From sequence record NZ_CP085281.1: a DNA stretch of 64,000 nt; one strand, written 5' to 3'. The notes beneath the pieces are model-generated. The model was not told the origin of the DNA, did no database searches, and saw only the letters and a program-made list of their open reading frames with translations. Below, in pieces: positions 2,826 through 46,459 of this stretch. This DNA is from a plasmid. How positions within the stretch are numbered: the first letter of the stretch is position 1; each line of letters starts with the position of its first letter. Both the position numbers and the translations under genes were made by a program.

Positions 2826-2928
2826 CAGTTCGGCCCGTCCTTGTCGGCGGCGGCGCGGATGTCGGCCTTGGTGACACCGGGGAGAGGACCGTTGCCTTTT
2901 GGTGAGTGAACGTGAGTTCTGCTCATCG

Positions 2929-4386
2929 TTAGGCAGCCTCGCCTTGCGGTGAGGCGGTCCCCGTCTGACCCACCGGCTGGTGGTGCGGGGTTGACGTTTC
3001 ATCGCCTGCTGCGTTGCCCGCTAGCGCGGGTTCGGTCTCACGCGTGGCTCCACGTCCTGCCACCGGGCCACTCCCGGCGGGACTCTGTTCACCCAGTGTG
3101 GGTACGCCGAGTCGGGCGAGGTTGATCGCAGCACCCAGATCACGATCGATCCGTGTGCCGCAGCCGTCACAGTCGAAGACTCGATCGGCGAGGGTGAGGT
3201 TTGGCTTTCGCCTCCCACACGCCGTGCACGTCTTCGACGACGGAAAATATCGGTCGGCCTCCACCAAATGGCTGCCATACCAACGTGTCTTGTAGCCGAG
3301 CATCCGCCGGATCTCGGCCAGCGCGGCATCAGCCAACGCCCGGTTGAGTCCTCGTTTGCGTGCTCCACCCTTGGCGCGCATCCCGGCGGCGTTCAACGTT
3401 TCGACCACGATCACCTGGTGTTGCTGGGCCAGGGCGGTAGTGGCCTTGCGCAGCACGTCGCGGCGCACCGCCGCGGCATGGGCATGGGTGCGACCGATCC
3501 GCGCTTGGGTGGCCCGCCACCGCTTCGACGGAATCTGCTTGGTCTTGGTGGCCGGATCGTAGGGTCCGTGCTGACGCGCGGACCGGCGTTGCAGGGCCCG
3601 CAACCGCGATTGCGCGGCGGTCAGCGACTTCGGCGCGCGGATGCGGTCGACCTCGACACCGTCGGGGGCCGCGACGACGAGCAGACTGTCGGCCTTGACG
3701 CCGACGTCGACGCCGACCACCGCATGTGCCGACCGGCGTGCGTGGGCGGGCCGCGCCTTGGCTGCGACGAGGGTCTGCAGGGCGCAGTGCCACCGCCCGG
3801 CGCTGTCCTGGCGCACGGTGGCCGACAGAATCCTCGCGGCGCCCGTCTCGATGCGGCGCGCCAGTTTGCGGGTCGACTCATGGGTACGAATCGTCCCCAG
3901 CCGGGGCAGGGTGACGTGGCGGCGATCGGGCTCGATGCGGATGGTCCCGGTGGTGAACCGCACGGCCTTGGGGGCGCGTGCGGACTTGAACCGGGGGAAC
4001 CCAACCGGCCGGCCGGCGCGCTGGCCGCGCCGCGACGCCGACCACGCATCCAACGCGCGGGCCAACCCGTCCAGGCCGGTGTTGTAGGCCTCTTTGGAGT
4101 TCTCGGCCCACCACGGCGCGCAGTCGACCTTGCGCTGATTCCAGGTCTTGCGCAGCGCCGGTAACGACCACCGCAGCGCCGGGGTCAACTGGTTCTCGGG
4201 GATGCCGTAGCTGCGTTCGGCAGCTCGTTGATCCACCACGGCCTTCACCAACGCCAGCATGTGGTTGTGCGCAAACCGCGCCGCACCCGCATGCGACGCC
4301 AACGCCCGCAGTTGTGCCGGTGTGGGCTCCAGGGCGAAGCGGTACGCCTGCACGGTCCACCCGTCGGGTACCTCGAACCTAGCCAC
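2929..4386 (-). CDS. tnpB: TnpB/OrfB RNA-guided endonuclease-like transposase accessory protein
   Basis: C-terminal zinc finger CTACGRR..FDCDGCG, OrfB-like body. GTG start at 4386..4384 lies just downstream of the tnpA stop. Confidence 0.8.
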   Translation of the reverse strand: MARFEVPDGWTVQAYRFALEPTPAQLRALASHAGAARFAHNHMLALVKAVVDQRAAERSYGIPENQLTPALRWSLPALRKTWNQRKVDCAPWWAENSKEAYNTGLDGLARALDAWSASRRGQRAGRPVGFPRFKSARAPKAVRFTTGTIRIEPDRRHVTLPRLGTIRTHESTRKLARRIETGAARILSATVRQDSAGRWHCALQTLVAAKARPAHARRSAHAVVGVDVGVKADSLLVVAAPDGVEVDRIRAPKSLTAAQSRLRALQRRSARQHGPYDPATKTKQIPSKRWRATQARIGRTHAHAAAVRRDVLRKATTALAQQHQVIVVETLNAAGMRAKGGARKRGLNRALADAALAEIRRMLGYKTRWYGSHLVEADRYFPSSKTCTACGRRKPNLTLADRVFDCDGCGTRIDRDLGAAINLARLGVPTLGEQSPAGSGPVAGRGATRETEPALAGNAAGDETSTPHHQPVGQTGTASPQGEAA

Positions 4387-5002
4387 CGCCGACCACCTCG
4401 GTCTGCTTGGCGGCGGTGATCGCGCGCATCGCCCGGTTGCGCGCCCCACGGCGGCCATACAGGCGCGCGCACATCGAGGTCAGCACCTCGATCATGTCGC
4501 GCACCAGATCATCGGTGGTCTCACCGCGATCGGCAACGATGATCGTCCGGCCATGCGCGGACAATGCGGCTTCAAGGTGCTCGACACCGAAGCGCGCCAA
4601 CCGGTCTCGATGCTCCACGACCACCACCGAAGCAGACGGATCCGACAAAATCCGGCGCAACTTCGGCCGTTTCCCGTTCAGCCCCGACCCGACCTCGGTC
4701 ACCACCTCGCCGATCACGTGGCCGTTGGCGGTAGCCCACTGCGTCAACCGCGCCACTTGCCGGTCCAGATCGCCCCGTTGATCATGCGAGGACACCCGCG
4801 CGTAGACGACCGTGCGACCGGTCGCCGCGCACGCTGCCGAATCGACCCAGATCGTTCCCGACGCCAACCGGCGCGCGGGTACCGGCATCCGGTCCTCGCG
4901 GAACCACCTGTAGGCGGTCTGCGGATGCACACCATTCGCGCGCGCCCACTCAGCCAACTTCACACCACTCACTAAAACACACATTCGATCACAAATGTGC
5001 AC
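4379..5002 (-). CDS. tnpA: IS607-family TnpA serine recombinase with N-terminal MerR-like HTH
   Basis: HTH VKLAEWARANGVHPQTAYRW followed by the serine-recombinase catalytic region VVYARVSSHDQ. Start at 5002 or the M at 4984. Confidence 0.8.
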   Translation of the reverse strand: MHICDRMCVLVSGVKLAEWARANGVHPQTAYRWFREDRMPVPARRLASGTIWVDSAACAATGRTVVYARVSSHDQRGDLDRQVARLTQWATANGHVIGEVVTEVGSGLNGKRPKLRRILSDPSASVVVVEHRDRLARFGVEHLEAALSAHGRTIIVADRGETTDDLVRDMIEVLTSMCARLYGRRGARNRAMRAITAAKQTEVVGGG

Positions 5003-5172
5003 ACACAGCCGAGCAGTTCACGACCCCTTCTCGTTCACCGCTGCCTTCAATTGTCGTGCCCTTTCGGCGGCATACAGGCGGGCGCCGCCGGACCTTGTGG
5101 GGCTATGTCATCGGCCCAGGTGTGGGACGCAGCGCTGAGCCGGCTAGGGAGACACTCAGGTGGCAGCCAATG

Positions 5173-9896: not shown

Positions 9897-10114
9897 TTTC
9901 CTGAACGTCCCTCGTCGACCGCGGCGACGATGTCGGTGGTGTCCACGCTGAGATCGGGTAATGCTGCCAGGAGGTCGGCGTTGTCGGCGCGCCGTGCCGC
10001 TTCGGCCAGCTCCCGCATCGCGTAGGTGTTCACCGAGACACGCTCGCGGGCGGCGAGCCGTTCGAGCCGTTCGATCACGTCGGCTGGCACGTTCCGTAGG
10101 TACACCGTTCCCAT
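9893..10114 (-). CDS. vapB: VapB antitoxin
   Basis: 73-aa protein MGTVYLRNVPADVIERLERLA.. immediately upstream of and overlapping vapC. ATG at 10114..10112. Confidence 0.7.
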   Translation of the reverse strand: MGTVYLRNVPADVIERLERLAARERVSVNTYAMRELAEAARRADNADLLAALPDLSVDTTDIVAAVDEGRSGK

Positions 10115-24147: not shown

Positions 24148-24289
24148 CCCGGCTCCTTCAAGTCAATAACAAGTCGCATTGTCAGCGCTTATCAACTTCT
24201 CTTGTCACTATAGCGACGGCGAACTGGTATTCAAGACCCGTTGTGCACGAATACTCAGCCGAGTTGAACTGACGCGTTAATCTGCCTGC

Positions 24290-29978: not shown

Positions 29979-30008
29979 GGGGGACGTGCTATCGGCGCTG
30001 GTCGGTGG
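29979..30008 (+). repeat. dispersed ~30-bp repeat, copy a
   Basis: gggggacgtgctatcggcgctggtcggtgg. Confidence 0.6.
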
Positions 30009-35789: not shown

Positions 35790-36668
35790 TCAGGCGGGGA
35801 TTCCGTTGTCGCGGATCCAGGTTTGCAGGCCGGGCAGCAGGTAGTCGACGTTGATTTCGCCTCGCTGCTTGAGTTCACGCAGGGTCTTGCGGGCGGTGGC
35901 GGCGAACTTCTTGTCGGCCCGGGCGCGGTAGTCGACCAGGGCGGCGTCCTTGTCGATGCCCTGCTTGGCGGCCAGGGCGGTGACCGCGGCGTCGACGGTG
36001 TGCTGCCATTCGGCGGCGGCGGGGTGATCCTCGCCGTACCAGTGCAGGTTTCCCAGGGCGGTGGCGATCGCGTTGGATGCGGCGCGTTCGGTCTTGTAGA
36101 GCGTCTTGCCGGTGTGGGGGTCGAGGACGGCGGCCGCGGCGCGTTGCGCGTTCTTGGCGGCCTTGTCGGCCGCGCGCTGTTGGCGTTCGATGTCGCTCGG
36201 CCGGCGGATCTCTCCGACTCGGCTGAGCACCTCAACTGGCGCACTCGGATAGCAAGTGGTGCAGGCGATTTCACCGGCTGCGTAGACGATGTGTTCTTCG
36301 TCTTTGCCGCTGTAGTCGGTCAGCCATGCGTAGCGAGTGGTGGGATAGCAGGTGGAGCAGTTCGTGCTGCTGTGGACGTGGCCGCCCGCGTTTTGGACGA
36401 GGAAGGCCCGGGTCCAGCCGCCGCGGCGGTTGAACTCGTCGTTGTAGGGCTTGATCTGGTCGGCGATCGCAGCGATCTGTGGGGTGTATTCGTCGGCTCG
36501 GGCTTCGAAGCTGGCAGCGCGGGCCTCGTCGGGGAATCGGCCGGTGCGGGCGTGATGCGCTGCGGTGCGCAGGCTTTCGGCGCGGGTGATGAGTGTGGCG
36601 CGCTGGATGCTGAGGTCGTTGAGGATGGCGTCGATTTCGGGTGGGGTCATGGTGGTGAGGTCGGTCAT
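35790..36668 (-). CDS. hypothetical protein with CxxC..CxxC zinc-ribbon-like motif
   Basis: ATG at 36668 with GGAGAAACC RBS. NCSTCYP and ACTTCYP about 30 residues apart. 5' extension of the listed 561-aa ORF is Arg-rich and is rejected. Confidence 0.55.
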   Translation of the reverse strand: MTDLTTMTPPEIDAILNDLSIQRATLITRAESLRTAAHHARTGRFPDEARAASFEARADEYTPQIAAIADQIKPYNDEFNRRGGWTRAFLVQNAGGHVHSSTNCSTCYPTTRYAWLTDYSGKDEEHIVYAAGEIACTTCYPSAPVEVLSRVGEIRRPSDIERQQRAADKAAKNAQRAAAAVLDPHTGKTLYKTERAASNAIATALGNLHWYGEDHPAAAEWQHTVDAAVTALAAKQGIDKDAALVDYRARADKKFAATARKTLRELKQRGEINVDYLLPGLQTWIRDNGIPA

Positions 36669-36907
36669 CAGAAGGTTTCTCCGTAGGTGTTGCCTTGGAG
36701 GGCGTTGGCGATGGCGCTGGAGATGACGGCGACTTGGTGGCAGGTGATGGTGCCGGCTTGCAGGTCGATGAGTTCGATGATGGCGTTGCGGGCGACGATC
36801 TTGGCGGTGTCGTCGAAGGCGTCGAGGCGGCTGGTGGCGTCCTCGATTGCTTCGCCGGCGTAGAGGTAGTCCCCGGCTTTGAAGGGGACGGAAGGCGTTC
36901 TGGGCAT
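36668..36907 (-). CDS. small hypothetical protein
   Basis: AAGGAGAAAG RBS. Stop overlaps the next start. Confidence 0.45.
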   Translation of the reverse strand: MPRTPSVPFKAGDYLYAGEAIEDATSRLDAFDDTAKIVARNAIIELIDLQAGTITCHQVAVISSAIANALQGNTYGETF

Positions 36908-36925
36908 GGGGGCTTTCTCCTTGGG

Positions 36926-37321
36926 TTAGGCGGCGTCGGGTTCGGCGTCGGCGGGTGGGTAGTCGCCGTAGATGCCGCGTTCGTCTCCTTCGGCGGCGAG
37001 GGCGTTTTCTCGGTCGGCGTTGGCGGCGAGGCGGGCGTTGCGGCGGTGGATCCAGCGGATGCCCCAGGCGGTTGCGGCGGCCAGGGCCAGGGTGGGGGCC
37101 AGCCATTCCCACTGCCAGATCATGCAGGCGATCCAGAACACGATGAGGGTGGTCCAGGCGGGGTGGCGCTGTGCCCAGTCCTTGGCGGGTGGGGCGGCTA
37201 CGGGGACTGCGATGACGGTGGGTGCGGCCAGCGCGTCGGTCCATTCGTGGCCGTCCCAATAGCGTTGCTGCGCTGCGCCGGTGGGGTCGGGGTACCAGCC
37301 TGCGGGTGGGTGGGTGGTCAT
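36926..37321 (-). CDS. DUF2510-domain membrane protein
   Basis: GWYPDPTG..QRYWDGHEWT then TM helices. GGGAGGAGAA RBS. Confidence 0.65.
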   Translation of the reverse strand: MTTHPPAGWYPDPTGAAQQRYWDGHEWTDALAAPTVIAVPVAAPPAKDWAQRHPAWTTLIVFWIACMIWQWEWLAPTLALAAATAWGIRWIHRRNARLAANADRENALAAEGDERGIYGDYPPADAEPDAA

Positions 37322-37365
37322 GGTGTTCTCCTCCCGTTGGGTCGTGCGACCGTCTCTGCGTCTGA

Positions 37366-37400
37366 GTGTATACGAGTATGCCGTTTTTTGGTATAGTCAT
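37366..37400 (+). promoter_or_regulatory. conserved promoter/operator-like element, copy 1: GTGTATAC..TATGCC..TTTTT..G(T)GTATAGT
   Basis: 27 of 35 positions identical to 44646..44680, including the palindrome GTATAC and -10-like TATAGT at 37392-37397. Lies in the divergent region between the DUF2510 operon and the 37507 gene. Confidence 0.4.
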
Positions 37401-37506
37401 ATCTACACGGAGGTTGTCGCGGCAGCGCATGACACTGTGATGCAGCGTGCAGACCCGTGCGCAGCTCGCGCGCATCCGCGTGCGGAACGGATGAAGGAGA
37501 CAAGGC

Positions 37507-37890
37507 GTGAGGGTGATTCTTCGGACGCCGGCCGAACTGGTCGCCGAGTACGACCTTCCCGACGTGGACAGCGGGGCGAGCGACGAGGAGATCCTGGCGG
37601 CCGCGGCCGCGGCCGAGCCGATTCGGCGATCCGAGCCCGAGGTCGTCGGTGAGACCTATGTCTACGCCCGCGGGTTGGATGACTTGGCGCAGCAGGGACG
37701 GCGCCTGATTCAGGCTGACTCGCGGCTCGACAGCGAGAAGAAGGCCGCCCAGCAGCTGGCGCGGCGGTACCTGGCGCAGGGCCGCAGCAAGCGCGACATC
37801 GCCCAGACACTGCACATCACGCGCAAGACGTTGGACGCCTGGTTGGGCGACACTGAACCGCGCGAGCCCGCGCGAAGTGATGAATCATGA
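37507..37890 (+). CDS. hypothetical HTH regulator
   Basis: GTG start after GAAGGAGA. C-terminal RSKRDIAQTLHITRKTLDAWL. Confidence 0.5.
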   Translation: MRVILRTPAELVAEYDLPDVDSGASDEEILAAAAAAEPIRRSEPEVVGETYVYARGLDDLAQQGRRLIQADSRLDSEKKAAQQLARRYLAQGRSKRDIAQTLHITRKTLDAWLGDTEPREPARSDES

Positions 37891-37964
37891 CCGGGCCGTG
37901 GCAGCACCGATACCACCGGTTGAGCTGGACCAATCGCACGTCCCCGCGTTGCTACTATCGCTGC

Positions 37965-38630
37965 ATGGCCGACGGGCAGGTGTGGGGCCGGCTGCGTGAG
38001 GTGGCTGCCGGCCAATTCGGCCTGTTCACCGCAGCCCAGGCCCGCCAGCATGGAGTGGCCCGCTACGAGCTGACCCGCCGGATCGACTCCGGGGAGCTGT
38101 TTCGGGCCCACCACGGTGTGTACGGGTTCACCGCGGACTCCGCGACGATGTTCGCGTTCGAGGACTGGGCTGCGCAGTGGCTGGCCTTGCGTCCGGAGGC
38201 GGACATCGAGCAGCGGCGAGCCGATCCGGATTGCGTCATCAGTCACGACAGCGCGGCGGTGATCCAGGAGTTGGGCACGATCGTGGCCCGGGGCTTGTTC
38301 TTGACCGGGCCGCGGCGCATCAACGCCCGCTCGGCGCGGGTGCACGCCTATCGCCGCGATATCGGTGAGCGTGGTGTCGACTGGGACGTAGTGAAGGGTC
38401 TTCCGGTGTCCACTCCGGGGCGGATCATCGCCGACCTGGCCCGTGATGATCTCGATGGTGCCCATCAGGGTGCGGTGATCGCCGACGTTCTCGACGAGGG
38501 CCTGCTGACCCTGGACGAGGTGGGTGCTCGCCTGGATCCGTTCGCGCACCGGTGGGGTGAGTCCGGCGGGGCGGAGTTGGCGCGGCGTTTCCTGGCTGAC
38601 GCTGGGCGTGCGCTGCCGCTGTCGGTATAG
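37965..38630 (+). CDS. abiEi: AbiEi-type antitoxin/transcriptional regulator
   Basis: N-terminal GRLREVAAGQFGLFTAAQARQHGVARYELTRRIDSGELFRAHHGVYGF, typical AbiEi. ATG at 37965. Confidence 0.7.
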   Translation: MADGQVWGRLREVAAGQFGLFTAAQARQHGVARYELTRRIDSGELFRAHHGVYGFTADSATMFAFEDWAAQWLALRPEADIEQRRADPDCVISHDSAAVIQELGTIVARGLFLTGPRRINARSARVHAYRRDIGERGVDWDVVKGLPVSTPGRIIADLARDDLDGAHQGAVIADVLDEGLLTLDEVGARLDPFAHRWGESGGAELARRFLADAGRALPLSV

Positions 38631-38639
38631 CGCAGGAGC

Positions 38640-39668
38640 ATGTGCAAGGCCAGCAATGAGCCCGGTGGGCCGAAGCGATGCTCGGCCGACATGCGGGCGC
38701 GGGCGCAGGAGTCCCACGACCGGGTCGCGGCGTTGGAGCAGCGGCAGCGTGAGATCGAGGAGATGCTCGATGCGCGCCGCACCTACGGTTCGGAGGGGGC
38801 GTTTCGGGCGGCGCTCAATGCGCGGATCCGCGATATCGCGCGGCGCAGCGGCAGTGATTCTGCTGAGATTGCGCGGCGGTTTGCGTTGCAGCAGTTCGTG
38901 TCCCGGCTTTTCGATCGTGATCCGGAGTCGTGGTTGGTGACCGGCGGGACGGCATTGCAGTTTCGGACGACGGAGGCGCGGGCGACCGCGGACCTGGATC
39001 TGGCGGTGACCCGCGGGGTGGAGGACTTGACGGAGGCACTGACTGCGGCGGCGAGCCGGCGGGCTGGGGAGCACGGTGAGTTCGTGGTGGCGGTGAGTCC
39101 CGGTAGTGGTCCTGGTGCGTTCACCGGGAAGATCACCTACATGCTGGGGGGCTCGCGGTTCGCGGTGGCCAAGTTGGATGTTGCTGCGGGGCGGGCGTTT
39201 CCGTTCGAGCCGGACACGTTGGTTCCTGATCCGGTTGTGCCGATCGATGATGTGCGGCCGATGTCGAGAGTCCGTACGTATGCGGTGGCCTCGCACCTGG
39301 CCGACAAGGTCGCCGCGATGTATGAGGTGCATGGCAGCAGCGGTGCGTCCCCGTCGACGCGTTCGCATGACCTGGCCGACATCGTGATCCTGTCGCGGTG
39401 TGCGCGGGTCGACGCCGAGGAGTTGCGGGGTGCGGTGCGCCAGCAGGAGCAGCGCCGTGGGGTCATGGTGCCCACTCCCCTGACGCTGCCTTCTGAGCAG
39501 TGGCGGCGCAGCTATCCGTCTCGGGTGGCTGATGCGGGGTTGCCGGCCGAGCTGCGCGACGCTGATGCGGCGCTGGCTGAGGCCGACCGGTTCGTCGGCG
39601 CGGTCCTCGATGGCCGGATTTCATCGGGCACGTGGGATCCCGATCGCCGATCCTGGACACCGAAATAG
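38640..39668 (+). CDS. abiEii: AbiEii/DUF1814-family nucleotidyltransferase toxin
   Basis: GGTALQFR..RATADLDLAV nucleotidyltransferase-like, RSHDLADIVIL. Immediately downstream of abiEi. Confidence 0.65.
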   Translation: MCKASNEPGGPKRCSADMRARAQESHDRVAALEQRQREIEEMLDARRTYGSEGAFRAALNARIRDIARRSGSDSAEIARRFALQQFVSRLFDRDPESWLVTGGTALQFRTTEARATADLDLAVTRGVEDLTEALTAAASRRAGEHGEFVVAVSPGSGPGAFTGKITYMLGGSRFAVAKLDVAAGRAFPFEPDTLVPDPVVPIDDVRPMSRVRTYAVASHLADKVAAMYEVHGSSGASPSTRSHDLADIVILSRCARVDAEELRGAVRQQEQRRGVMVPTPLTLPSEQWRRSYPSRVADAGLPAELRDADAALAEADRFVGAVLDGRISSGTWDPDRRSWTPK

Positions 39669-39670
39669 CC

Positions 39671-39697
39671 GCTCACCTCGGCCAATGACACGTCCCC
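39671..39697 (-). repeat. dispersed ~30-bp repeat, copy c (reverse orientation, intergenic)
   Basis: Reverse complement reads ggggacgtgtcattggccgaggtgagc. Confidence 0.6.
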
Positions 39698-39782
39698 GCA
39701 GGCGCCGTCCGTCCGTCCGCCGCGCCGGCCCGGGGGCGGGGTCGGCAATATTGCAGCGGTTTTCCTACACCGGCGGTGTGGG

Positions 39783-40529
39783 TCAGAGGAAGTCGCCGCC
39801 GTCGCGGATCCGCTGGCGCAGCGGGTCCAGCGCCACCTCGATGACGTAGTCGTCGTCGCCGAAGAAGCGCTGGCGATAGTTCTGCAGCGCCGTTTCCAGG
39901 GCGTGGCGGTTGGCGTGCTGGCCGAGGAACTGCGGACGCGCCGTGAGCGGCACCAGCCCGGTGGTCAGCCAGTACTTGTTGAGGCGTTCGACGGACTCCA
40001 GCTGCTCGACCGACGGGGCGAGATCGGCTTCGGCGTCCCAGTGCGGATGCATGAGGATCAGCCCGTTGGTGGTCGGGATCATGGTGTCGATGCACTGACA
40101 TAGTGCCCACGCGCCGATTCGGTGGCCTTGGAGTGCGGGGTCGACGTCGAGCCACAGCGGCAGCATGACGACTTCTACGCAGTCGGAGAACTGTTGTGCC
40201 AGTTCAGGTCCGATGCGGTGATCGTCGAAGAGTGGGGCGAAACGGTCGGTGCGCAGGTTGTGGTACTGCTCGCGGTTGAGCAGCTCCTGGGCCAGGCCGT
40301 CGACGCCGGTGCGGACCATCACGAAGTGCAGGCGGCCGACGAGGACGTTGGGGTCGCCGAGCCGGGATTCGAGATGGGTCATCAGGATGTCGGCGCGCCA
40401 GAGCACTGTTGCGTGGCTGTCGTACACGGTGTCGGCGGTTTCCAGGTGCAGTGACGGCGCGAACATGCCGATGGTGGGCAGGTCGGGGGCGAGGGACTTC
40501 ACGAACTCGTCGAGGGCGATTATCGCCAT
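39783..40529 (-). CDS. hypothetical protein
   Basis: 248-aa ORF, last gene of the ArdC-led minus-strand run. Confidence 0.5.
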   Translation of the reverse strand: MAIIALDEFVKSLAPDLPTIGMFAPSLHLETADTVYDSHATVLWRADILMTHLESRLGDPNVLVGRLHFVMVRTGVDGLAQELLNREQYHNLRTDRFAPLFDDHRIGPELAQQFSDCVEVVMLPLWLDVDPALQGHRIGAWALCQCIDTMIPTTNGLILMHPHWDAEADLAPSVEQLESVERLNKYWLTTGLVPLTARPQFLGQHANRHALETALQNYRQRFFGDDDYVIEVALDPLRQRIRDGGDFL

Positions 40530-40606
40530 GGGTGTCTCCCTCTACGTGACTGTGGCGCCGGCACGGTCTCGCGTGGGGACCTAAGTGTGCTTGTCCATGA
40601 CATTGG

Positions 40607-41605
40607 TTATGCAAGGTCGGTGCGCGCGCCTTGCCGGCGTTGCACCTGTTGCACTTTGGCGGCGGGGTACCCGCTGATGCGGGTGATGCCGCGGTCGGCC
40701 ATGATGGCGCGGGCTCGGGATTGGCTGCAGCCAAGGAACTCGGCGACTTTCTCGATGGGCCACACCTCATCCATGCGGATGGCCATGTCGCTGTTGCCGT
40801 TATGTGCAGCCTGGCGCCAGGTACGGCGCAGTGTTCGCATACGACCTCGATTCGATCTGACTTCGTCGACGTCGGAGTAGGCCGTCGGGAGAAATGGTGT
40901 GTCGCCGAGGGACCATGCGTGCAAGCGTCGGCCGCGGCCGTGTAGACCTTGCACGGAGCTATGCCCGGGCAGCAGCCGCGTGGTGCGTTCGTCGGTGTCC
41001 TGAAGGAATTCTGCGGACGTCGACGGTGGCAGGAACAGCGCGAGCTGCGATGAGCCGAAGAGTGGCGGAAGTTCGTCTCGGCGGAATGGAATGGTCGCGA
41101 GCCAGCAGCGGTAGTGCAACGGATAAAGCGCCGCTGTGCGGTCGTATTCACCGAATTCGCTTTCCCCGAACGAGCGCTCCGATACGTAAGCTGAGCGGCC
41201 CGCGTCCCGTTCCCAACGGTCCAGCCAGAGCGTGTAGAAGTCCACGGGTACCCGAACTGCTCCGATCGAGGCGAGGAACACGGCCCGAAGTGTGTTGAGC
41301 CTGTTCATCAGTTCAAAGTCCCGATCGCGGTTGGGGCCAGGCGCACGGCGTAGTTGCTCGATCGTGGCGGAGTCTTCGATGATGCGGAGACGCTCGGTGC
41401 GTAGCTGAGCAGGATCGGCGGCGCTCACAACCTGGGCGATCTGTTCTGGGCTGTTCTGGCGGGGATCGAGGCTGCCGCAGGAGGTGCAGGTTCCCTCAGG
41501 CAGGTCCGTCTGAACCGGCACGTGGTCTGCGGGTAACACAGTTCCGCAGACCACGCACAACCGCCTCACTGCGTCGAGCGTGAGCATGGTCAACGCGCTT
41601 GTCAT
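40607..41605 (-). CDS. hypothetical protein with N-terminal zinc ribbon and C-terminal HTH
   Basis: CVVCG..CTSCG near the N-terminus. C-terminal IEKVAEFLGCSQSRARAIM. Confidence 0.5.
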   Translation of the reverse strand: MTSALTMLTLDAVRRLCVVCGTVLPADHVPVQTDLPEGTCTSCGSLDPRQNSPEQIAQVVSAADPAQLRTERLRIIEDSATIEQLRRAPGPNRDRDFELMNRLNTLRAVFLASIGAVRVPVDFYTLWLDRWERDAGRSAYVSERSFGESEFGEYDRTAALYPLHYRCWLATIPFRRDELPPLFGSSQLALFLPPSTSAEFLQDTDERTTRLLPGHSSVQGLHGRGRRLHAWSLGDTPFLPTAYSDVDEVRSNRGRMRTLRRTWRQAAHNGNSDMAIRMDEVWPIEKVAEFLGCSQSRARAIMADRGITRISGYPAAKVQQVQRRQGARTDLA

Positions 41606-41658
41606 GCTCCCGACACTAGCCGACTTACGAGCGTTTTGCTCGTATGTTGTGGGTTGGA

Positions 41659-42597
41659 TCAGCTGAGGCTACGCAGGAGCTGGCCCAGGCGTACGAGTCG
41701 TTGGCCGGTCGCCAGGCATTTGGGGGCCAGGTGGGCGCCGCGGCCGTCGGAGAGTTGCTCGGCGAGCGTCGTGGGTTCGCCGGCGGCCAGGACTGCGGTG
41801 ATCGCCGCCTCCAGATCCAGGAGTACCTGCGCCGCGGCGCCGGAGCTTGGGGACGTGTCCTCGTCGCTGGTCCGGGTGTTTTTGACGGGATCGCCGGCGG
41901 GCGTGGCCGGTGCGGCCGCCGCTGTGGCGCCGACCGCTGGGGATGTGTCATCAGGGCTGGTAGGGGTGTTTTCGTCGTCGCCCCATGGCGGGGCGCTGGA
42001 TGTGGATTCCTGGCCGCCGCCGGTGGTGATGTCGAACGGTGGCGCGTCGACGTCGACGTCGTCGGGGATCTCCGCGGGGACCAGGGCGCCCAGTGGGGAT
42101 GCCGGCGGGGTCGATGATTCGTGCAGGGGGCCGAAGCCTGGGGCGGTGGAGCGCTGGGTGACGGTGTCGATGAGGTCGCGCAGGGCGTCGGTTTGGGCGT
42201 CGGGGTCGGTGAGTCCCTCCAGCACCGCGGGGGCTTGTTCGATGACGACGCGGGCGCCGGTGACCCCGAGGCGGGCGACGTCGGAGGAGGTGACCGGGAT
42301 GCGGGTTCCGGGGGCGGTTAGTTCCTGCAGGGGCAGGATCAGGCCGACGATGCCCTGCTGGTAGCGGCGGGCGTTGGAGGCTGCGCATCCGAGTTGGTCT
42401 TGGACGAAGGCGGTGAAGCCGGTGTAGGGGCGGCCGGCGCCGTCGTTGATGTAGCGCCAGTCCTCGTCGCGGTAGATCTCGGCGAGGACCTCGAACGCCG
42501 TCTGGAAGGCGTTGTGTAGCAGCTGGGCTCGGCGCAGGGCGCGTTCTTGGCGGGTTTCGATGACGCCGGCTTCTTGGAAGGCGAGGTCGGTGCTCAT
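41659..42597 (-). CDS. hypothetical protein with Pro/Thr-rich tail carrying two DTSP repeat insertions
   Basis: ATG at 42597 (M32) overlaps the upstream stop (ATGA). Contains repeat copies d and e. Confidence 0.5.
   Translation of the reverse strand: MSTDLAFQEAGVIETRQERALRRAQLLHNAFQTAFEVLAEIYRDEDWRYINDGAGRPYTGFTAFVQDQLGCAASNARRYQQGIVGLILPLQELTAPGTRIPVTSSDVARLGVTGARVVIEQAPAVLEGLTDPDAQTDALRDLIDTVTQRSTAPGFGPLHESSTPPASPLGALVPAEIPDDVDVDAPPFDITTGGGQESTSSAPPWGDDENTPTSPDDTSPAVGATAAAAPATPAGDPVKNTRTSDEDTSPSSGAAAQVLLDLEAAITAVLAAGEPTTLAEQLSDGRGAHLAPKCLATGQRLVRLGQLLRSLS
41849..41878 (+). repeat. dispersed ~30-bp repeat, copy d
   Basis: ggggacgtgtcctcgtcgctggtccgggtg. Confidence 0.55.
41939..41968 (+). 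repeat. dispersed ~30-bp repeat, copy e
   Basis: ggggatgtgtcatcagggctggtaggggtg. Confidence 0.5.
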
Positions 42598-43205
42598 CGT
42601 GGGGTCCGCTGCTGGATCGCGGCGTCGATGGGTTCGGCGGCGTCGTCGAGGAAGCTGCGCAGACGCTTCTGGGTGGCCGGGTCGGCCCATGCGGTGGCGA
42701 TGACGTCGGCCAGGTCGTCGGCTAGGACGCCGAGTTCGGCGGTGACGTCCAGGCGGAGCCGCTTGCGCGTTTGCAGGTCGGGCATGAGCCGCAGCAGCGT
42801 GATGGTGACGGTGTTGGTGTCGGTCGAGGCCGGGCTGTTGCGGAAGGTGGCCATGATGCGCTGTTCGACGAGCGTTTTGGCCAGGGGGTCGCGGAAGGAG
42901 CCGACGGGGATGACGGCCAGGGGGCCGTCGGTGTCGCCGGCGTTGCCGCGGGAGAGTCGCTCTTCGTACTCCTCGACGGCCATGGCCAGCCCGGACAGGT
43001 AGATGGTCTTGAGGGCTTTGCGTTCGTGCTCGTCGCGGGTGAGTTCGAAGCGGCGGAACGTTTCGGCGGCGCCGTCGGGAGTGGAGGCGTAGGCGATCGC
43101 GTCGGCGTCGCGGCGGCGGCGGGCTTTGTCCAGTTTGGCCTGCACCTTGTCGAGTTCGCGCAGGAGTTCTTCGCGGGTCGGTTCCTGGGTCATGGTGTCA
43201 GTCAT
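42594..43205 (-). CDS. hypothetical protein
   Basis: ATG at 43205 with GGAGCGAG RBS. The listed ORF extends to a GTG at 43298, but that extension is low-complexity. Confidence 0.5.
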   Translation of the reverse strand: MTDTMTQEPTREELLRELDKVQAKLDKARRRRDADAIAYASTPDGAAETFRRFELTRDEHERKALKTIYLSGLAMAVEEYEERLSRGNAGDTDGPLAVIPVGSFRDPLAKTLVEQRIMATFRNSPASTDTNTVTITLLRLMPDLQTRKRLRLDVTAELGVLADDLADVIATAWADPATQKRLRSFLDDAAEPIDAAIQQRTPR

Positions 43206-43356
43206 TGTCTCGCTCCTGGGCTTCGTCGACGCCGAAGAACTGCTCGGCGGCTGCGGTGGCGGCTGCTTCGGTGTCGCCGGTGAAGGTGTGTCGTTCACCG
43301 GTGTCGGGGTCTTCGATCTCGATCTCGACGGCGGCTGGTTGACCGGGGGTGTTCAT
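43198..43356 (-). CDS. small acidic ORF (52 aa) not in the ORF track
   Basis: ATG at 43356 preceded by AGAAGGG. Protein MNTPGQPAAVEIEIEDPDTGERHTFTGDTEAAATAAAEQFFGVDEAQERDND. Its TGA at 43200..43198 lies 2 nt downstream of the next gene's ATG (43205..43203), read in a different frame. Confidence 0.35.
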   Translation of the reverse strand: MNTPGQPAAVEIEIEDPDTGERHTFTGDTEAAATAAAEQFFGVDEAQERDND

Positions 43357-43368
43357 TGGTGTGCCCTT

Positions 43369-44472
43369 CTATGGCATGACGGCCGGGGCGGCCTGTGGGA
43401 GTGCGCCGATGATGGACTTGCAGGCCTTGTTGACCCGGTCGGCGGTCTGCTGCACCTTCTTGGGGTCCCCCTTGGCCCAGCCGTCGATGTAGGCGAATGC
43501 GCTGCCTCCGGGGGTGAGGCCGTAGTGGCGGCCGATGACGTAGGCGACGCTTTCGGCCTCGACCTCCATCGTGGGGCGCTGGCCGCCGGGGCCGTTGTGG
43601 TAGTCGTGGTGGCGTTCCATGTGGCCCATCTCGATGTGCGCCAATTCGTGGGCGAGCACCATGGCTTGGTGGGCGTCGGAGTAGCGGGTGCTGACGACGA
43701 CCTTCTTGGTGGGCTTGTCCTGGGTGTAGCCCTCGGGTCCGTTCTCGGGTAGCTCGACCCGTTCGACGGTGTAGCCGTGGGCGGTGATCTGGTTCTCGAG
43801 TTCGGTGTGCATCTCAGGTGGTGCGACGCCGGTTTCGCGGGTGTAGGTGACCTCGGGGCGCTGCGGCAGCGGCGGGCCGGTGGTGTCGGATACGTCGTAG
43901 ACCGGGACGCTGAGCCAGCCGGTCATGACGTCTTCCTCGGTGCCGTCGTCCTTCTTGCGCTTCTTGATCTGGGGTGCGCGGATCCAGATCGCCTTCGAGC
44001 CGGCGATCAGGTCGCGGTTGAACTTCTTGTTCCACACCTTCTTCAGGCCGCCGACGAAGGTCGCATCGGGGCGCTGCATGCGCACCAGCAGCTGGTTCTG
44101 CAGCGAGTAGTGGTGGAACTGGCTGGCGTAGTGCAGCCAGTCCTGCCACTGCTCGGCGGTGTTGAGGTTGGCGATCGCGTCGTCGATCTCGCGGCGGATG
44201 TCCTCGATGCGGGTCGTCTTGTCGGCGAAGCTGACCTTCTTGGACCGCGGCGCGGGCGCCGGCGCTTCTGCTGGTGTCGCGTCGGCGACTGCCGGTGCTG
44301 GCGCGGGATGGCCCGCATCGGCCAGAGCTGCCATCAGAACGGACTCGGCTTCTTCGAGGACCTCGACGGCGTGGGCTGAGTGACTGTAGGCGATGCGGGT
44401 GTCCCCGGAGCAGCGGCGTGGCCCTCCTGGGTCGGTCGTGGCGCGACACACGATGAAGTACCTCCTCGGCAT
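43369..44472 (-). CDS. ardC: ArdC-like antirestriction protein (N-terminal ssDNA-binding domain plus C-terminal HExxH metallopeptidase-like domain)
   Basis: FHHYSLQNQLLVRMQRPDATFVGGLKKVW..GSKAIWIRAP resembles the ArdC N-domain. HELAHIEMGH zincin motif. Start may be an internal M. Confidence 0.7.
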   Translation of the reverse strand: MPRRYFIVCRATTDPGGPRRCSGDTRIAYSHSAHAVEVLEEAESVLMAALADAGHPAPAPAVADATPAEAPAPAPRSKKVSFADKTTRIEDIRREIDDAIANLNTAEQWQDWLHYASQFHHYSLQNQLLVRMQRPDATFVGGLKKVWNKKFNRDLIAGSKAIWIRAPQIKKRKKDDGTEEDVMTGWLSVPVYDVSDTTGPPLPQRPEVTYTRETGVAPPEMHTELENQITAHGYTVERVELPENGPEGYTQDKPTKKVVVSTRYSDAHQAMVLAHELAHIEMGHMERHHDYHNGPGGQRPTMEVEAESVAYVIGRHYGLTPGGSAFAYIDGWAKGDPKKVQQTADRVNKACKSIIGALPQAAPAVMP

Positions 44473-44645
44473 GGGACGCGGGGACCGCTACCGAAATAGC
44501 GCCAGCCCGGCAAAGGAGAGCTGGTGTGCGTTCCTACTTCTTGAAGTACCGGCGGGGACCCCGTTTTCCGTCGCTCCTGGACCGAACTTTTTCCGCCTCG
44601 ACGCGCCCTCCCCCATCACCGCTGCATCGGCCGCGCTTCAACGCT

Positions 44646-44680
44646 GTGTATACCGATATGCCATTTTTGTGTATAGTGGT
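44646..44680 (+). promoter_or_regulatory. conserved promoter/operator-like element, copy 2
   Basis: gtgtataccgatatgccatttttgtgtatagtggt with -10-like TATAGT at 44672-44677, 28 nt upstream of the ARH start. Divergent from ardC. Confidence 0.4.
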
Positions 44681-44704
44681 GCCCATAAGAAAGGTTGGTG
44701 CATC

Positions 44705-45781
44705 ATGACGAGACGAACTGCTACCCAGGCTCGCTACCGCAACGCCCTCATCGGGTTGGCCGCCGGCGACGCGTGGGGCTACCAGGTCGAATTCCGTAAG
44801 TACGCCTGCATGCCCGCCTACCCGGTGCCCGCACCCAAGAAGATCTGGCGGATCTCCGACGACACCCAGATGACGCTTGCCCTGCACGACGCCCTCGTCG
44901 ACGTCGCCGGCCAGCTCGACGACATCGACGCGGTAACCAAGGCCATCACCGAGCGCTTCCTCGAATGGCAGGTCGACCGCGACAACAACCGTGCGCCGGG
45001 GGCCACGTGCATGGGGTCCCTTACACGTCTGCGGCGCGGCATTCAGTGGCACGAAGAGGCTGGCGCGCTGGCCCGGCCTGGCTGCGGGGCCGTGATGCGG
45101 CTCGCGCCGGCGGCCCTGTGCCCGGAGCCGGTGTGGCGGGGCATCACTGCGTTGCAGGCGGTGCTGACCCACAAGCATCCGCGGGCGATCGCGTCCGCCC
45201 TGGTGCTCAGTGACGCCATCCGGTCTGCGACCACGGTGCGTGGGCATTTTCTCGAACATGCCATCAGCGCGGCGATGTCGGTCGTTTCGGGTGAAAGCCC
45301 GTGGCTGCGTGACGATTACCTGCTGCGGGTACTTTCACCGATGACCTCGGACATTTCCGGCCTGCTGGCCGCGGGCGTCAAGGACGTCCTGCTCGATGCG
45401 CTCCTGGACGCCTACGCCGTCAAGCAGGAGCTGACCACGCTGACCCCAGCGGAGTACGGCGACCCCTGCGTGGGAATCGGTGAGGGCTGGGAGTCGGGCA
45501 CGGCGACCGCCCTCGGGCTGCTGGTGGCCGACATGGCCACCGCGCCCGGGCGGCGTCGGGCTCCCCTCAACGGGCGCGAGGCGCTGGCGTGGGCGGCAAC
45601 GAGCAATGGCGACTCCGACTCGATCGCCAGCATCGCCGGCGCGGTCATCGGCGCCGCGCACACCGGGTCGAGCTATTGGGCCGGGGTGAAGATGGCCCCC
45701 CGGTTCGAGCCGCGGTACGCCAAGGCGCTGAGGGCGGCTCCTGCTGCAGCTGTTGGCTTTCTCGCGGCGAGCGCGGGGTGA
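44705..45781 (+). CDS. ADP-ribosylglycohydrolase (ARH/DraG family)
   Basis: GLAAGDAWGY, SDDTQMTLA, GCGAVMRLAP, NGDSDSIASIAGAVIGA. ATG at 44705 after GAAAGG. Confidence 0.8.
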   Translation: MTRRTATQARYRNALIGLAAGDAWGYQVEFRKYACMPAYPVPAPKKIWRISDDTQMTLALHDALVDVAGQLDDIDAVTKAITERFLEWQVDRDNNRAPGATCMGSLTRLRRGIQWHEEAGALARPGCGAVMRLAPAALCPEPVWRGITALQAVLTHKHPRAIASALVLSDAIRSATTVRGHFLEHAISAAMSVVSGESPWLRDDYLLRVLSPMTSDISGLLAAGVKDVLLDALLDAYAVKQELTTLTPAEYGDPCVGIGEGWESGTATALGLLVADMATAPGRRRAPLNGREALAWAATSNGDSDSIASIAGAVIGAAHTGSSYWAGVKMAPRFEPRYAKALRAAPAAAVGFLAASAG

Positions 45782-46395
45782 GTCTGGTGCGACCAGGTGC
45801 ATCGGTGGGCAAGTCCGCGAAGATCCGGGACGCTGCGCTTGCGGAGTTCGCGGCGCGTGGTGTTGAAGCCACCTCGTTGCGGCAGGTGGCGGCTAGGGGT
45901 GGTGTCTCAATCGGGTTGGTCCAGCATCACTTTGGTAGCAAAGCCGGTCTCGTCGAGGCTGTCGATGCGCACGTGGCCGACGTGGTTGGCGAGGTGCTGG
46001 TCTCTGCTCCTGAAGCGGTGACGGTCGAAGCGTTTGGTGATCAGTTGATGGCGCTGCTGACGCAACACAGCGTGGTCGCGGAGTACCTCGCTCGGGCGAT
46101 GGCGGACAAGACGCCCTTCGGGTCAATGATTTTCGATCGGTTGATCGCGATGGGCGTTGCGCGGTGGAAGTGCCGCAGCGGCGCCGGCCGAACCTGTGCC
46201 GATGTGGACACCGTGTGGGCGGTGATGAATGTGGTGGTGCTCTTCATTGGCACCATCTTGTTGCGACCTCACGTTGAGCGCCAGCTGTCCGCACCGTTGT
46301 TATCGCCTGACCAGGTGGTCCGGTGGAGGTCCGCCGTCGCCGCATTGACAGCCAAAGGGGTATCTCTGACACGCATGCCGCGCGGCGCGGAATAG
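45778..46395 (+). CDS. TetR-family transcriptional regulator
   Basis: HTH AALAEFAARGVEATSLRQVAARGGVSIGLVQHHFGSKAGL. GTG overlaps the ARH TGA (GTGA). Confidence 0.75.
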   Translation: MSLVRPGASVGKSAKIRDAALAEFAARGVEATSLRQVAARGGVSIGLVQHHFGSKAGLVEAVDAHVADVVGEVLVSAPEAVTVEAFGDQLMALLTQHSVVAEYLARAMADKTPFGSMIFDRLIAMGVARWKCRSGAGRTCADVDTVWAVMNVVVLFIGTILLRPHVERQLSAPLLSPDQVVRWRSAVAALTAKGVSLTRMPRGAE

Positions 46396-46459
46396 TTTCC
46401 CTTACGTCCCTGAGCCGTGCCTTCATCGGGCGCTCAGTCATTGCGGGCAAGGCCGCGGC

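Follow-up and report, generated by a model that had tools for sequence, protein, structure and literature searches.

Small helix-turn-helix (HTH) proteins of plasmids, such as KorA of the IncP plasmid RK2 and ArdK of the IncW plasmid R388, bind a short palindromic operator that lies over the -10 hexamer of several promoters; one operator precedes the regulator's own gene, which is negatively autoregulated, and the targets are genes of the establishment and maintenance type. At the OR and OL regions of phage lambda, adjacent dyad sites of 16-17 base pairs (bp) and of graded quality are found over the -35 and -10 regions. A further described arrangement is that of the AbiEi antitoxins of Streptococcus agalactiae and Mycobacterium tuberculosis (Rv2827c), which repress their own promoter through promoter-overlapping repeats of about 23 bp and are thought to block SigA; these repeats come in inverted pairs with a gap of 3 or 13 bp and immediately precede abiEi, which is the first gene, and each repeat is bound by an AbiEi monomer (PMC7319586). 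Here we describe an element that occurs twice, at sites 1 and 2, in a stretch of 64,000 nucleotides (nt; the window) from an ESX/type IV secretion system (T4SS)-type plasmid of Mycobacterium avium subsp. hominissuis (record NZ_CP085281.1). Sequence comparison strongly supports the reading of this element as a promoter with a shared operator, through which one regulator would co-control two loci, the operon p127-abiEi-abiEii behind site 1 and an ADP-ribosylglycohydrolase (ARH) gene behind site 2.

The locus resembles the KorA and ArdK circuits in that a small HTH protein (p127) is encoded behind one of several promoters with the same operator, two in the window and three in the related plasmid p1-JPH1, and in that an ArdC-like gene is a neighbour. 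In contrast to those circuits, the host is a Mycobacterium, the operator is made of tandem pairs of 16-bp dyads, and the predicted regulon consists of the AbiE pair and ARH. The likeness to lambda lies in the adjacent dyads of graded quality, which are about two helical turns apart, so that dimers could bind them cooperatively, and in the clade variants, which resemble immunity groups; it ends with the plasmid context and the lack of homology and of a divergent repressor/anti-repressor switch. We regard the locus as a previously undescribed instance of an ordinary type of plasmid control circuit, and a full-text search of the literature on the regulation of large ESX/T4SS-type mycobacterial conjugative plasmids returned no relevant paper.

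Direct reading of the two 35-bp copies, 37366-37400 (gtgtatacgagtatgccgttttttggtatagtcat) and 44646-44680 (gtgtataccgatatgccatttttgtgtatagtggt), revealed identity at 27 of 35 positions, as an earlier note on this DNA had stated. Both copies were AT-rich islands in surroundings with 63-72% GC (about 67%). The common pattern, GTGTATACNNNTATGCCNTTTTTNNGTATAGT, gave exactly two matches in the window when three mismatches were tolerated and none in 100 dinucleotide-preserving shuffles of the window, and GTATAGT and TGTATAC were each confined to these two places within it. The gene positions also agreed with the earlier description: each copy preceded a plus-strand gene and stood back-to-back with a minus-strand one. 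The order was found to be DUF2510 (minus), site 1, p127, abiEi and abiEii (plus), four minus-strand genes of which the last encodes an ArdC-like M78 peptidase, site 2 and ARH (plus); the coordinates are collected in Table 1.

When a weight matrix was derived from the element's left part, the right part matched it as well, from which we read the element as a tandem repeat of one unit. The unit is a 16-bp imperfect palindrome with the consensus TGTAWA-N4-TWTACA (TGTAWA-N4-TWTRCW in the window form), and each site contains two of them, O1 and O2, in the same orientation and 23 bp apart from start to start at both sites of the window plasmid. The GTATAC palindrome emphasized in the earlier note is present, but it is just part of one half-site of the 16-bp dyad; the right end of the element lies a few bases beyond that given in the note, at 37405 and 44685. 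O1 scored 10/12 and O2 scored 9/12 as dyads at both window sites. In the Mycolicibacterium relatives, site 1 reads TGTAAACCGCTTTACA-tttgt-TGTAAAGTGCCTTTCA and site 2 reads TGTAAGTGTCTTGCTT-tttga-TGTAAAGCCATTTACA; O1 of the former and O2 of the latter are perfect TGTAAA-N4-TTTACA palindromes, and the degenerate units are O2 of site 1 and O1 of site 2. The half-sites are inverted and lie about 10 bp apart from centre to centre, the units overlap the core promoter, and they are conserved above their flanks. A scan of 565 kb of related DNA with TGTAWA-N4-TWTACA returned matches of at least 11/12 at no place other than sites 1 and 2 and a single third site; in shuffled window sequence, with the threshold relaxed to 10/12, there were about 0.45 dyad matches per 64 kb.

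Related loci were gathered through p127 homologues and their contigs, one scan of species-representative genomes and one scan of metagenome contigs, the last of which yielded four short contigs only; alignments and information profiles were built from 17 loci for site 1 and 14 for site 2. The p127 homologues formed 20 protein clusters, found exclusively in Mycobacterium or Mycolicibacterium. In every locus that covered them, namely p1-JPH1 of M. avium (NZ_AP020327.1, 191 kb, 85% identity to the studied region) and about 20 mycobacterial or Mycolicibacterium loci, both intergenic elements occupied the same positions and the gene order was retained. The flanks outside the element diverged freely between clades, and the left half of O2 (TGTAWAG) was almost invariant. 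Searches with the 46-51-bp elements alone (BLAST against plasmid records) returned only chance matches in AT-rich Firmicutes, the element pattern had a single chance match in viral contigs, in a phage of 33% GC, and no DNA-level resemblance of the region to phage records was found. Insertion of an IS200/IS605 insertion sequence (IS) as the cause of a destroyed left half of site 2 in p1-JPH1 was ruled out, as relatives without the IS share the TGTGCGC left half.

The relatives fall into operator classes in which both sites change together. The distance between O1 and O2 at site 1 and site 2 was 23/23 in class A (the window and two relatives), 22/22 in class B (the M. avium p1-JPH1 clade) and 21/21 in class C. 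In classes A and B the fifth base of the half-site was T; in class C it was A. Only class A had TATGCC as the right half of its O1 units, at site 1 as well as at site 2, in the form TGTATAC-N3-TATGCC. Class B carries TGTATAC-N3-TTTACT and has dyad matches of 11-12/12; its site-2 O2 is TGTATAGTGCTTTACA, and the site-2 O2 orthologues of classes B and C are 12/12 palindromes. Additionally, one metagenomic relative (L039, ~895-945) contained exactly 10 bp more between O1 and O2 (31 vs 21 bp), which kept the helical phase. From this concerted change of two separate sites we infer that one trans-acting factor recognizes both.

The third site was found in p1-JPH1. It is a single palindrome, TGTAAAGTGGTATACA, with a 12/12 dyad, 54 bp upstream of a gene for a 434-residue protein, and the identical sequence recurs with differing flanks in an M. 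simiae-type contig. The p1-JPH1 region at 98-165 kb is the counterpart of the window, and by this synteny the third site of the window's own plasmid would be expected about 20 kb past the window end. In another plasmid lineage (L030-L034), a triple repeat, TTGGCCAA / TTGGCATATGCCAA / TTGGCATAC, was present in place of the TGTAWA dyad, 60-10 nt upstream of a 426/431-residue homologue of the 434-residue protein (gene at 10001, or at 365 in L034). A different repeat before the same gene suggests a joint exchange of operator and regulator.

The left half of O2 supplies a -10 hexamer of the TANNNT type, TATAGT, or TAAAGT in class C, which is kept in most relatives; the TATAGT boxes reported earlier were thus located in both copies. 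At the usual -10 distance, transcription from site 1 is predicted to start at about 37404, with a leader of 103 nt to the p127 GTG, and transcription from site 2 at about 44684, with a leader of 21 nt to the ARH ATG that includes a Shine-Dalgarno sequence. A consensus scan of 36800-46500 revealed no TTGACA-like -35 hexamer at 16-18 bp upstream, where GTATAC/TATACG is found instead; an absent -35 is common in mycobacteria (PMC7319586). TTTACT was rejected as a -35 hexamer, as it lies just 8 bp from the -10. The flank of site 1 is conserved as cACTGTA, with gAGTGTA as the window form; its minus-strand reading, TACAGT (TACACT), falls 35-45 nt before the start codon of DUF2510. A possible -10 of the divergent DUF2510 promoter would thus lie beneath O1, through which the DUF2510 unit is possibly co-controlled. 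Taken together, the conservation, the dyads, the overlap with the -10 and the concerted change strongly support the earlier proposal of a shared operator for one regulator of two loci, to which the tandem dyads, unseen at that time, are added. Only one other TATAGT was present in the window, on the minus strand at about 24180-24245, within a promoter-like TTGAAT-N16-TATAGT that has no dyad operator.

Which protein binds the operator can be narrowed down by comparison of the candidates. The p127 protein, which is 100% identical to LIX17_25920 of a 215,734-bp M. avium subsp. hominissuis plasmid contig, belongs to no curated Pfam or NCBIfam family, with generic HTH matches below threshold only. 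Its AlphaFold model (mean predicted local distance difference test score, pLDDT, of 80; above 90 over residues 70-110) consists of a small β-rich N-terminal part, a 35-residue helix and a C-terminal HTH, and the last ~35 residues superposed locally, in no case significantly, on HTH domains of GerE/LuxR, DeoR and recombinases. The element was always accompanied by p127 and remained upstream of it in two loci without abiE (L015 and L019), and the ARH genes on Rhodococcus, Prescottella and Dietzia plasmids had neither p127 nor the element upstream. Moreover, the putative recognition helix varied with the operator: classes B, C and D, all with the TTTACA half-site, have (V/I)(T/S)RPTLDSW, and class A, which alone has divergent right half-sites, has ITR(K/M/V)TLD(A/V)W. 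Because of this HTH, the constant co-occurrence and the covariation of helix and operator class, p127 is the best candidate, and AbiEi and the TetR-family protein encoded downstream of ARH fit worse. We consider it fairly probable that p127 is a repressor that binds the double operators at both sites; of the two regulators named in the earlier note, the HTH protein encoded at 37507 is thus the better supported. Its relation to KorA/TrfB and ArdK would be one of functional analogy only, as the matches in Pfam, NCBIfam and the PDB are below threshold and reveal no family relationship. A weak full-length match of p127 was found to an uncharacterised phage family (phrog_33446, E = 3e-8), and tblastn of p127 against phage records gave no match.

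Several observations weigh against a p127 operator of this kind. The palindromes of the window itself reach only 9-10/12, and the dyad reading is for this reason borrowed from the relatives. The lack of a canonical -35 leaves the promoter assignment to the -10 alone, and four of the class C site-2 copies have C or G as the last base of this hexamer (TAAAGC/TAAAGG). In these copies, TACATT in the right half of O2 may serve as the -10, and whichever hexamer is used in class C, the operator is predicted to cover the core promoter of site 2. The spacing of 26-27 bp in class D (L015, L022 and L036, the element of the last lying at ~855-905) is out of helical phase with that of 21-23 bp in the other classes. 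Gene conversion between two sites 7 kb apart could be an alternative source of their concerted change. As for p127, fold and sequence searches (Pfam, NCBIfam, PDB) revealed no significant match to any characterised regulator family, and the link between its helix and the class of operator is confounded by common descent, representing essentially one event and not proof.

The most obvious competitor is AbiEi, which might bind the double operator, repress its own operon and cross-regulate ARH. The known autorepression by AbiEi proteins, the place of abiEi in the operon downstream of site 1 and the unit length of 21-23 bp, close to the 23-bp repeats, are consistent with this possibility. However, the units here are direct repeats with internal dyads, unlike the inverted pairs of the described systems; a separate HTH gene stands first, between site 1 and abiEi; and an inverted-repeat pair upstream of abiEi was looked for and not found. 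The element also precedes two genes unrelated to abiE (those of ARH and the 434-residue protein) and outlives abiE, being intact before p127 in both loci that have lost it, and the winged-helix region of AbiEi is almost invariant across classes in which the operator varies. Binding by AbiEi is therefore unlikely. Alternatively, there might be no plasmid-specific repressor, the element being a duplicated strong promoter module (-10, T-rich spacer and upstream element) or a site bound by a chromosomally encoded host protein, for example a CRP-like factor or a nucleoid protein with a preference for AT-rich DNA. TATAGT is a good SigA -10 and the -10 region is the most invariant block; Lsr2-type proteins bind AT-rich stretches of GC-rich DNA, and TGT...TAC loosely resembles the CRP-type TGTGA-N6-TCACA. 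A promoter module leaves unexplained the perfect 16-bp palindromes and the clade-specific concerted changes, as well as the third site with its one perfect palindrome and the fact that the right half of O2 is conserved although it lies past the -10, in transcribed DNA. The element was found only in p127-carrying plasmids; we regard both versions as rather improbable. As a specific site type, the CRP consensus was rejected, since the window copies match about 4/10 of its positions, as was the LacI/cre-type palindrome TGTAAG-CG-CTTACA, which has a centre of 2 bp instead of 4 bp, p127 not being LacI-like.

The TetR-family protein, the other regulator named in the earlier note, is a repressor-type DNA-binding protein encoded in the same direction as ARH. 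Its tblastn search against all related loci, including the complete p1-JPH1 and the class A locus L011, gave no match, and all these loci keep the element; because it has no homologue in relatives that retain the element, we rejected it as a very unlikely regulator. Finally, the earlier note had allowed for chance similarity of the two 35-mers, which the presence of just two copies in the window might favour. In view of the empty shuffles and of the retention of both copies at orthologous positions in about 20 loci, coincidence is barely credible.

Promoter activity, transcription starts, repression and the identity of the binding protein are inferred here from the DNA and its relatives, and a mechanism with p127 as the repressor would run as follows. 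Dimers of p127 would bind the O1 and O2 palindromes, possibly cooperatively, and block RNA polymerase, with O2 overlapping TATAGT and the predicted start and O1 lying over the -35 region and, at site 1, probably over the divergent DUF2510 -10 as well. Repression rather than activation is suggested because the operator overlaps the -10 and the predicted start. In this way p127 would repress its own operon, p127-abiEi-abiEii, by negative autoregulation and ARH in trans, and in related plasmids also the gene for the 434-residue protein, whose function is unknown. By analogy with other conjugative plasmids, the outcome would be tight steady-state repression, with a transient burst of expression when the plasmid enters a repressor-free cell. 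A wider and more tentative possibility is that p127 and the double operator form an 'immunity-like' module whose specificity has diverged into classes A-D among mycobacterial conjugative plasmids, with an entry-induced regulon of abortive-infection or toxin-antitoxin (TA) genes, ARH and a widely conserved 434-residue plasmid/phage protein, and that p127 replaces AbiEi as regulator in a three-gene variant of AbiE. Within such a regulon, ARH may be a candidate anti-defence enzyme or an antidote to the plasmid's own ADP-ribosyltransferase.

Table 1. Positions of the operator units and of the surrounding genes (window coordinates unless a locus is given)
Feature	Position	Strand	Remarks
DUF2510 gene	36926..37321	-	First gene of the divergent unit at site 1
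Candidate -10 of the divergent DUF2510 promoter	37365..37370	-	TACACT (TACAGT in relatives); overlaps the left edge of O1
Site 1 O1	37367..37382	+	TGTATACGAGTATGCC; imperfect dyad, 10/12; over the -35 region
Site 1 spacer	37383..37389	+	T-rich; T-run before O2 in nearly all loci
Site 1 O2	37390..37405	+	GGTATAGTCATATCTA; contains TATAGT at 37392-37397
p127 gene (127 residues; GTG start)	37507..37890	+	N-terminal β-rich domain, 35-residue helix, C-terminal HTH
abiEi, antitoxin (type IV TA)	37887..38630	+	In the operon downstream of site 1
abiEii, nucleotidyltransferase toxin	38640..39668	+	
ArdC-like / M78 peptidase gene	43369..44472	-	Divergent from site 2, 174 bp apart; taken as context only
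Site 2 O1	44647..44662	+	TGTATACCGATATGCC
Site 2 O2	44670..44685	+	TGTATAGTGGTGCCCA; TATAGT at 44672-44677
ARH gene	44705..45781	+	Second transcription unit under the element
TetR-family gene (Pfam TetR_N)	45778..46395	+	Co-directional with ARH, just downstream
434-residue protein gene	L009 34421-35725		Strong match to phrog_2319 (E = 3e-51), a family of unknown function

The intergenic regions of the two loci contained further conserved features. In the p127 leader (37430-37500), we found a conserved short upstream reading frame with the peptide ...REKLARIRALN..., which is interrupted by TGA in the window and is fused to p127 by some gene callers, giving proteins of 153-159 residues. In p1-JPH1, the frame ends at or overlaps the p127 GTG, which suggests translational coupling or a leader peptide. 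Further downstream in this operon, the conserved start of abiEi is probably an in-frame ATG at 37965. The DNA that separates site 2 from the start of the ArdC-like gene (44472) contained a block of about 75 nt (44480-44560), almost invariant in 10 related loci, with two adjacent hairpins (CCAGC...GCTGG and CGCTA...TAGCG) with invariant stems and variable loops. An Rfam search over 36500-46500, including this block, revealed nothing relevant. The block could fold in the mRNA of the ArdC-like gene, as a structured 5' leader, or in single-stranded DNA, as a structure of the entry promoter or transfer-origin type.

ARH has different neighbours on other actinobacterial plasmids. On Prescottella equi pVAPN1572, Rhodococcus sp. 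NS1 pNSL1 and a Dietzia plasmid, a gene for an ADP-ribosyltransferase of about 700 residues, a small gene and ARH form one operon, an arrangement that was absent from an R. fascians plasmid (L004). The ADP-ribosyltransferase homologue of p1-JPH1 (L007, 32448-34514) lies about 63 kb from ARH. ARH may act as a partner of this enzyme or as its antidote. The cargo of p1-JPH1 also includes an ESX/type VII locus, FtsK- and VirB4-like conjugation genes and numerous TA pairs.

Other repeats and mobile elements were observed in the window. The region at 2888-5019 was 82% identical to an IS607-family tnpA/tnpB element, of which p1-JPH1 has two copies, and a direct repeat of 300 nt (51053-51352 and 51781-52080, 97% identical, 728 bp apart) was located within a block of minus-strand genes. 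A 30-nt repeat family, D8, with the plus-strand form GGGGGACGTGTCATTGCCGCTGGTCA, occurred at 29979, 31203, 41848, 49129, 49207, 60908 and 61552. Its reverse complement encodes the peptide motif T-S-x-(N/D)-(D/S)-T-S-P in several minus-strand proteins of the secretion/transfer region, and D8 is read as a peptide motif and not a DNA site because its third codon positions vary. A D8-like sequence, GGGGACGTGTC, was also found just upstream of the ADP-ribosyltransferase genes on Rhodococcus plasmids (L002 ~1575 and L003 ~1560).

General concepts are left unchanged by this locus, as it is well known that plasmid repressors may regulate themselves through operators shared by several promoters, and its interest is moderate to low for general biology and higher for the mycobacterial plasmid field. 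For that field, the analysis offers a defined operator (TGTAWA-N4-TWTACA), a candidate repressor of an unannotated family, and a predicted regulon that joins TA or abortive-infection genes with ARH beside an ArdC-like gene. If the proposed control by p127 is true, the compact pair of repressor and operator would be of use as a mycobacterial genetic tool and would provide a handle on the genes that the plasmid turns on when it enters a new host.

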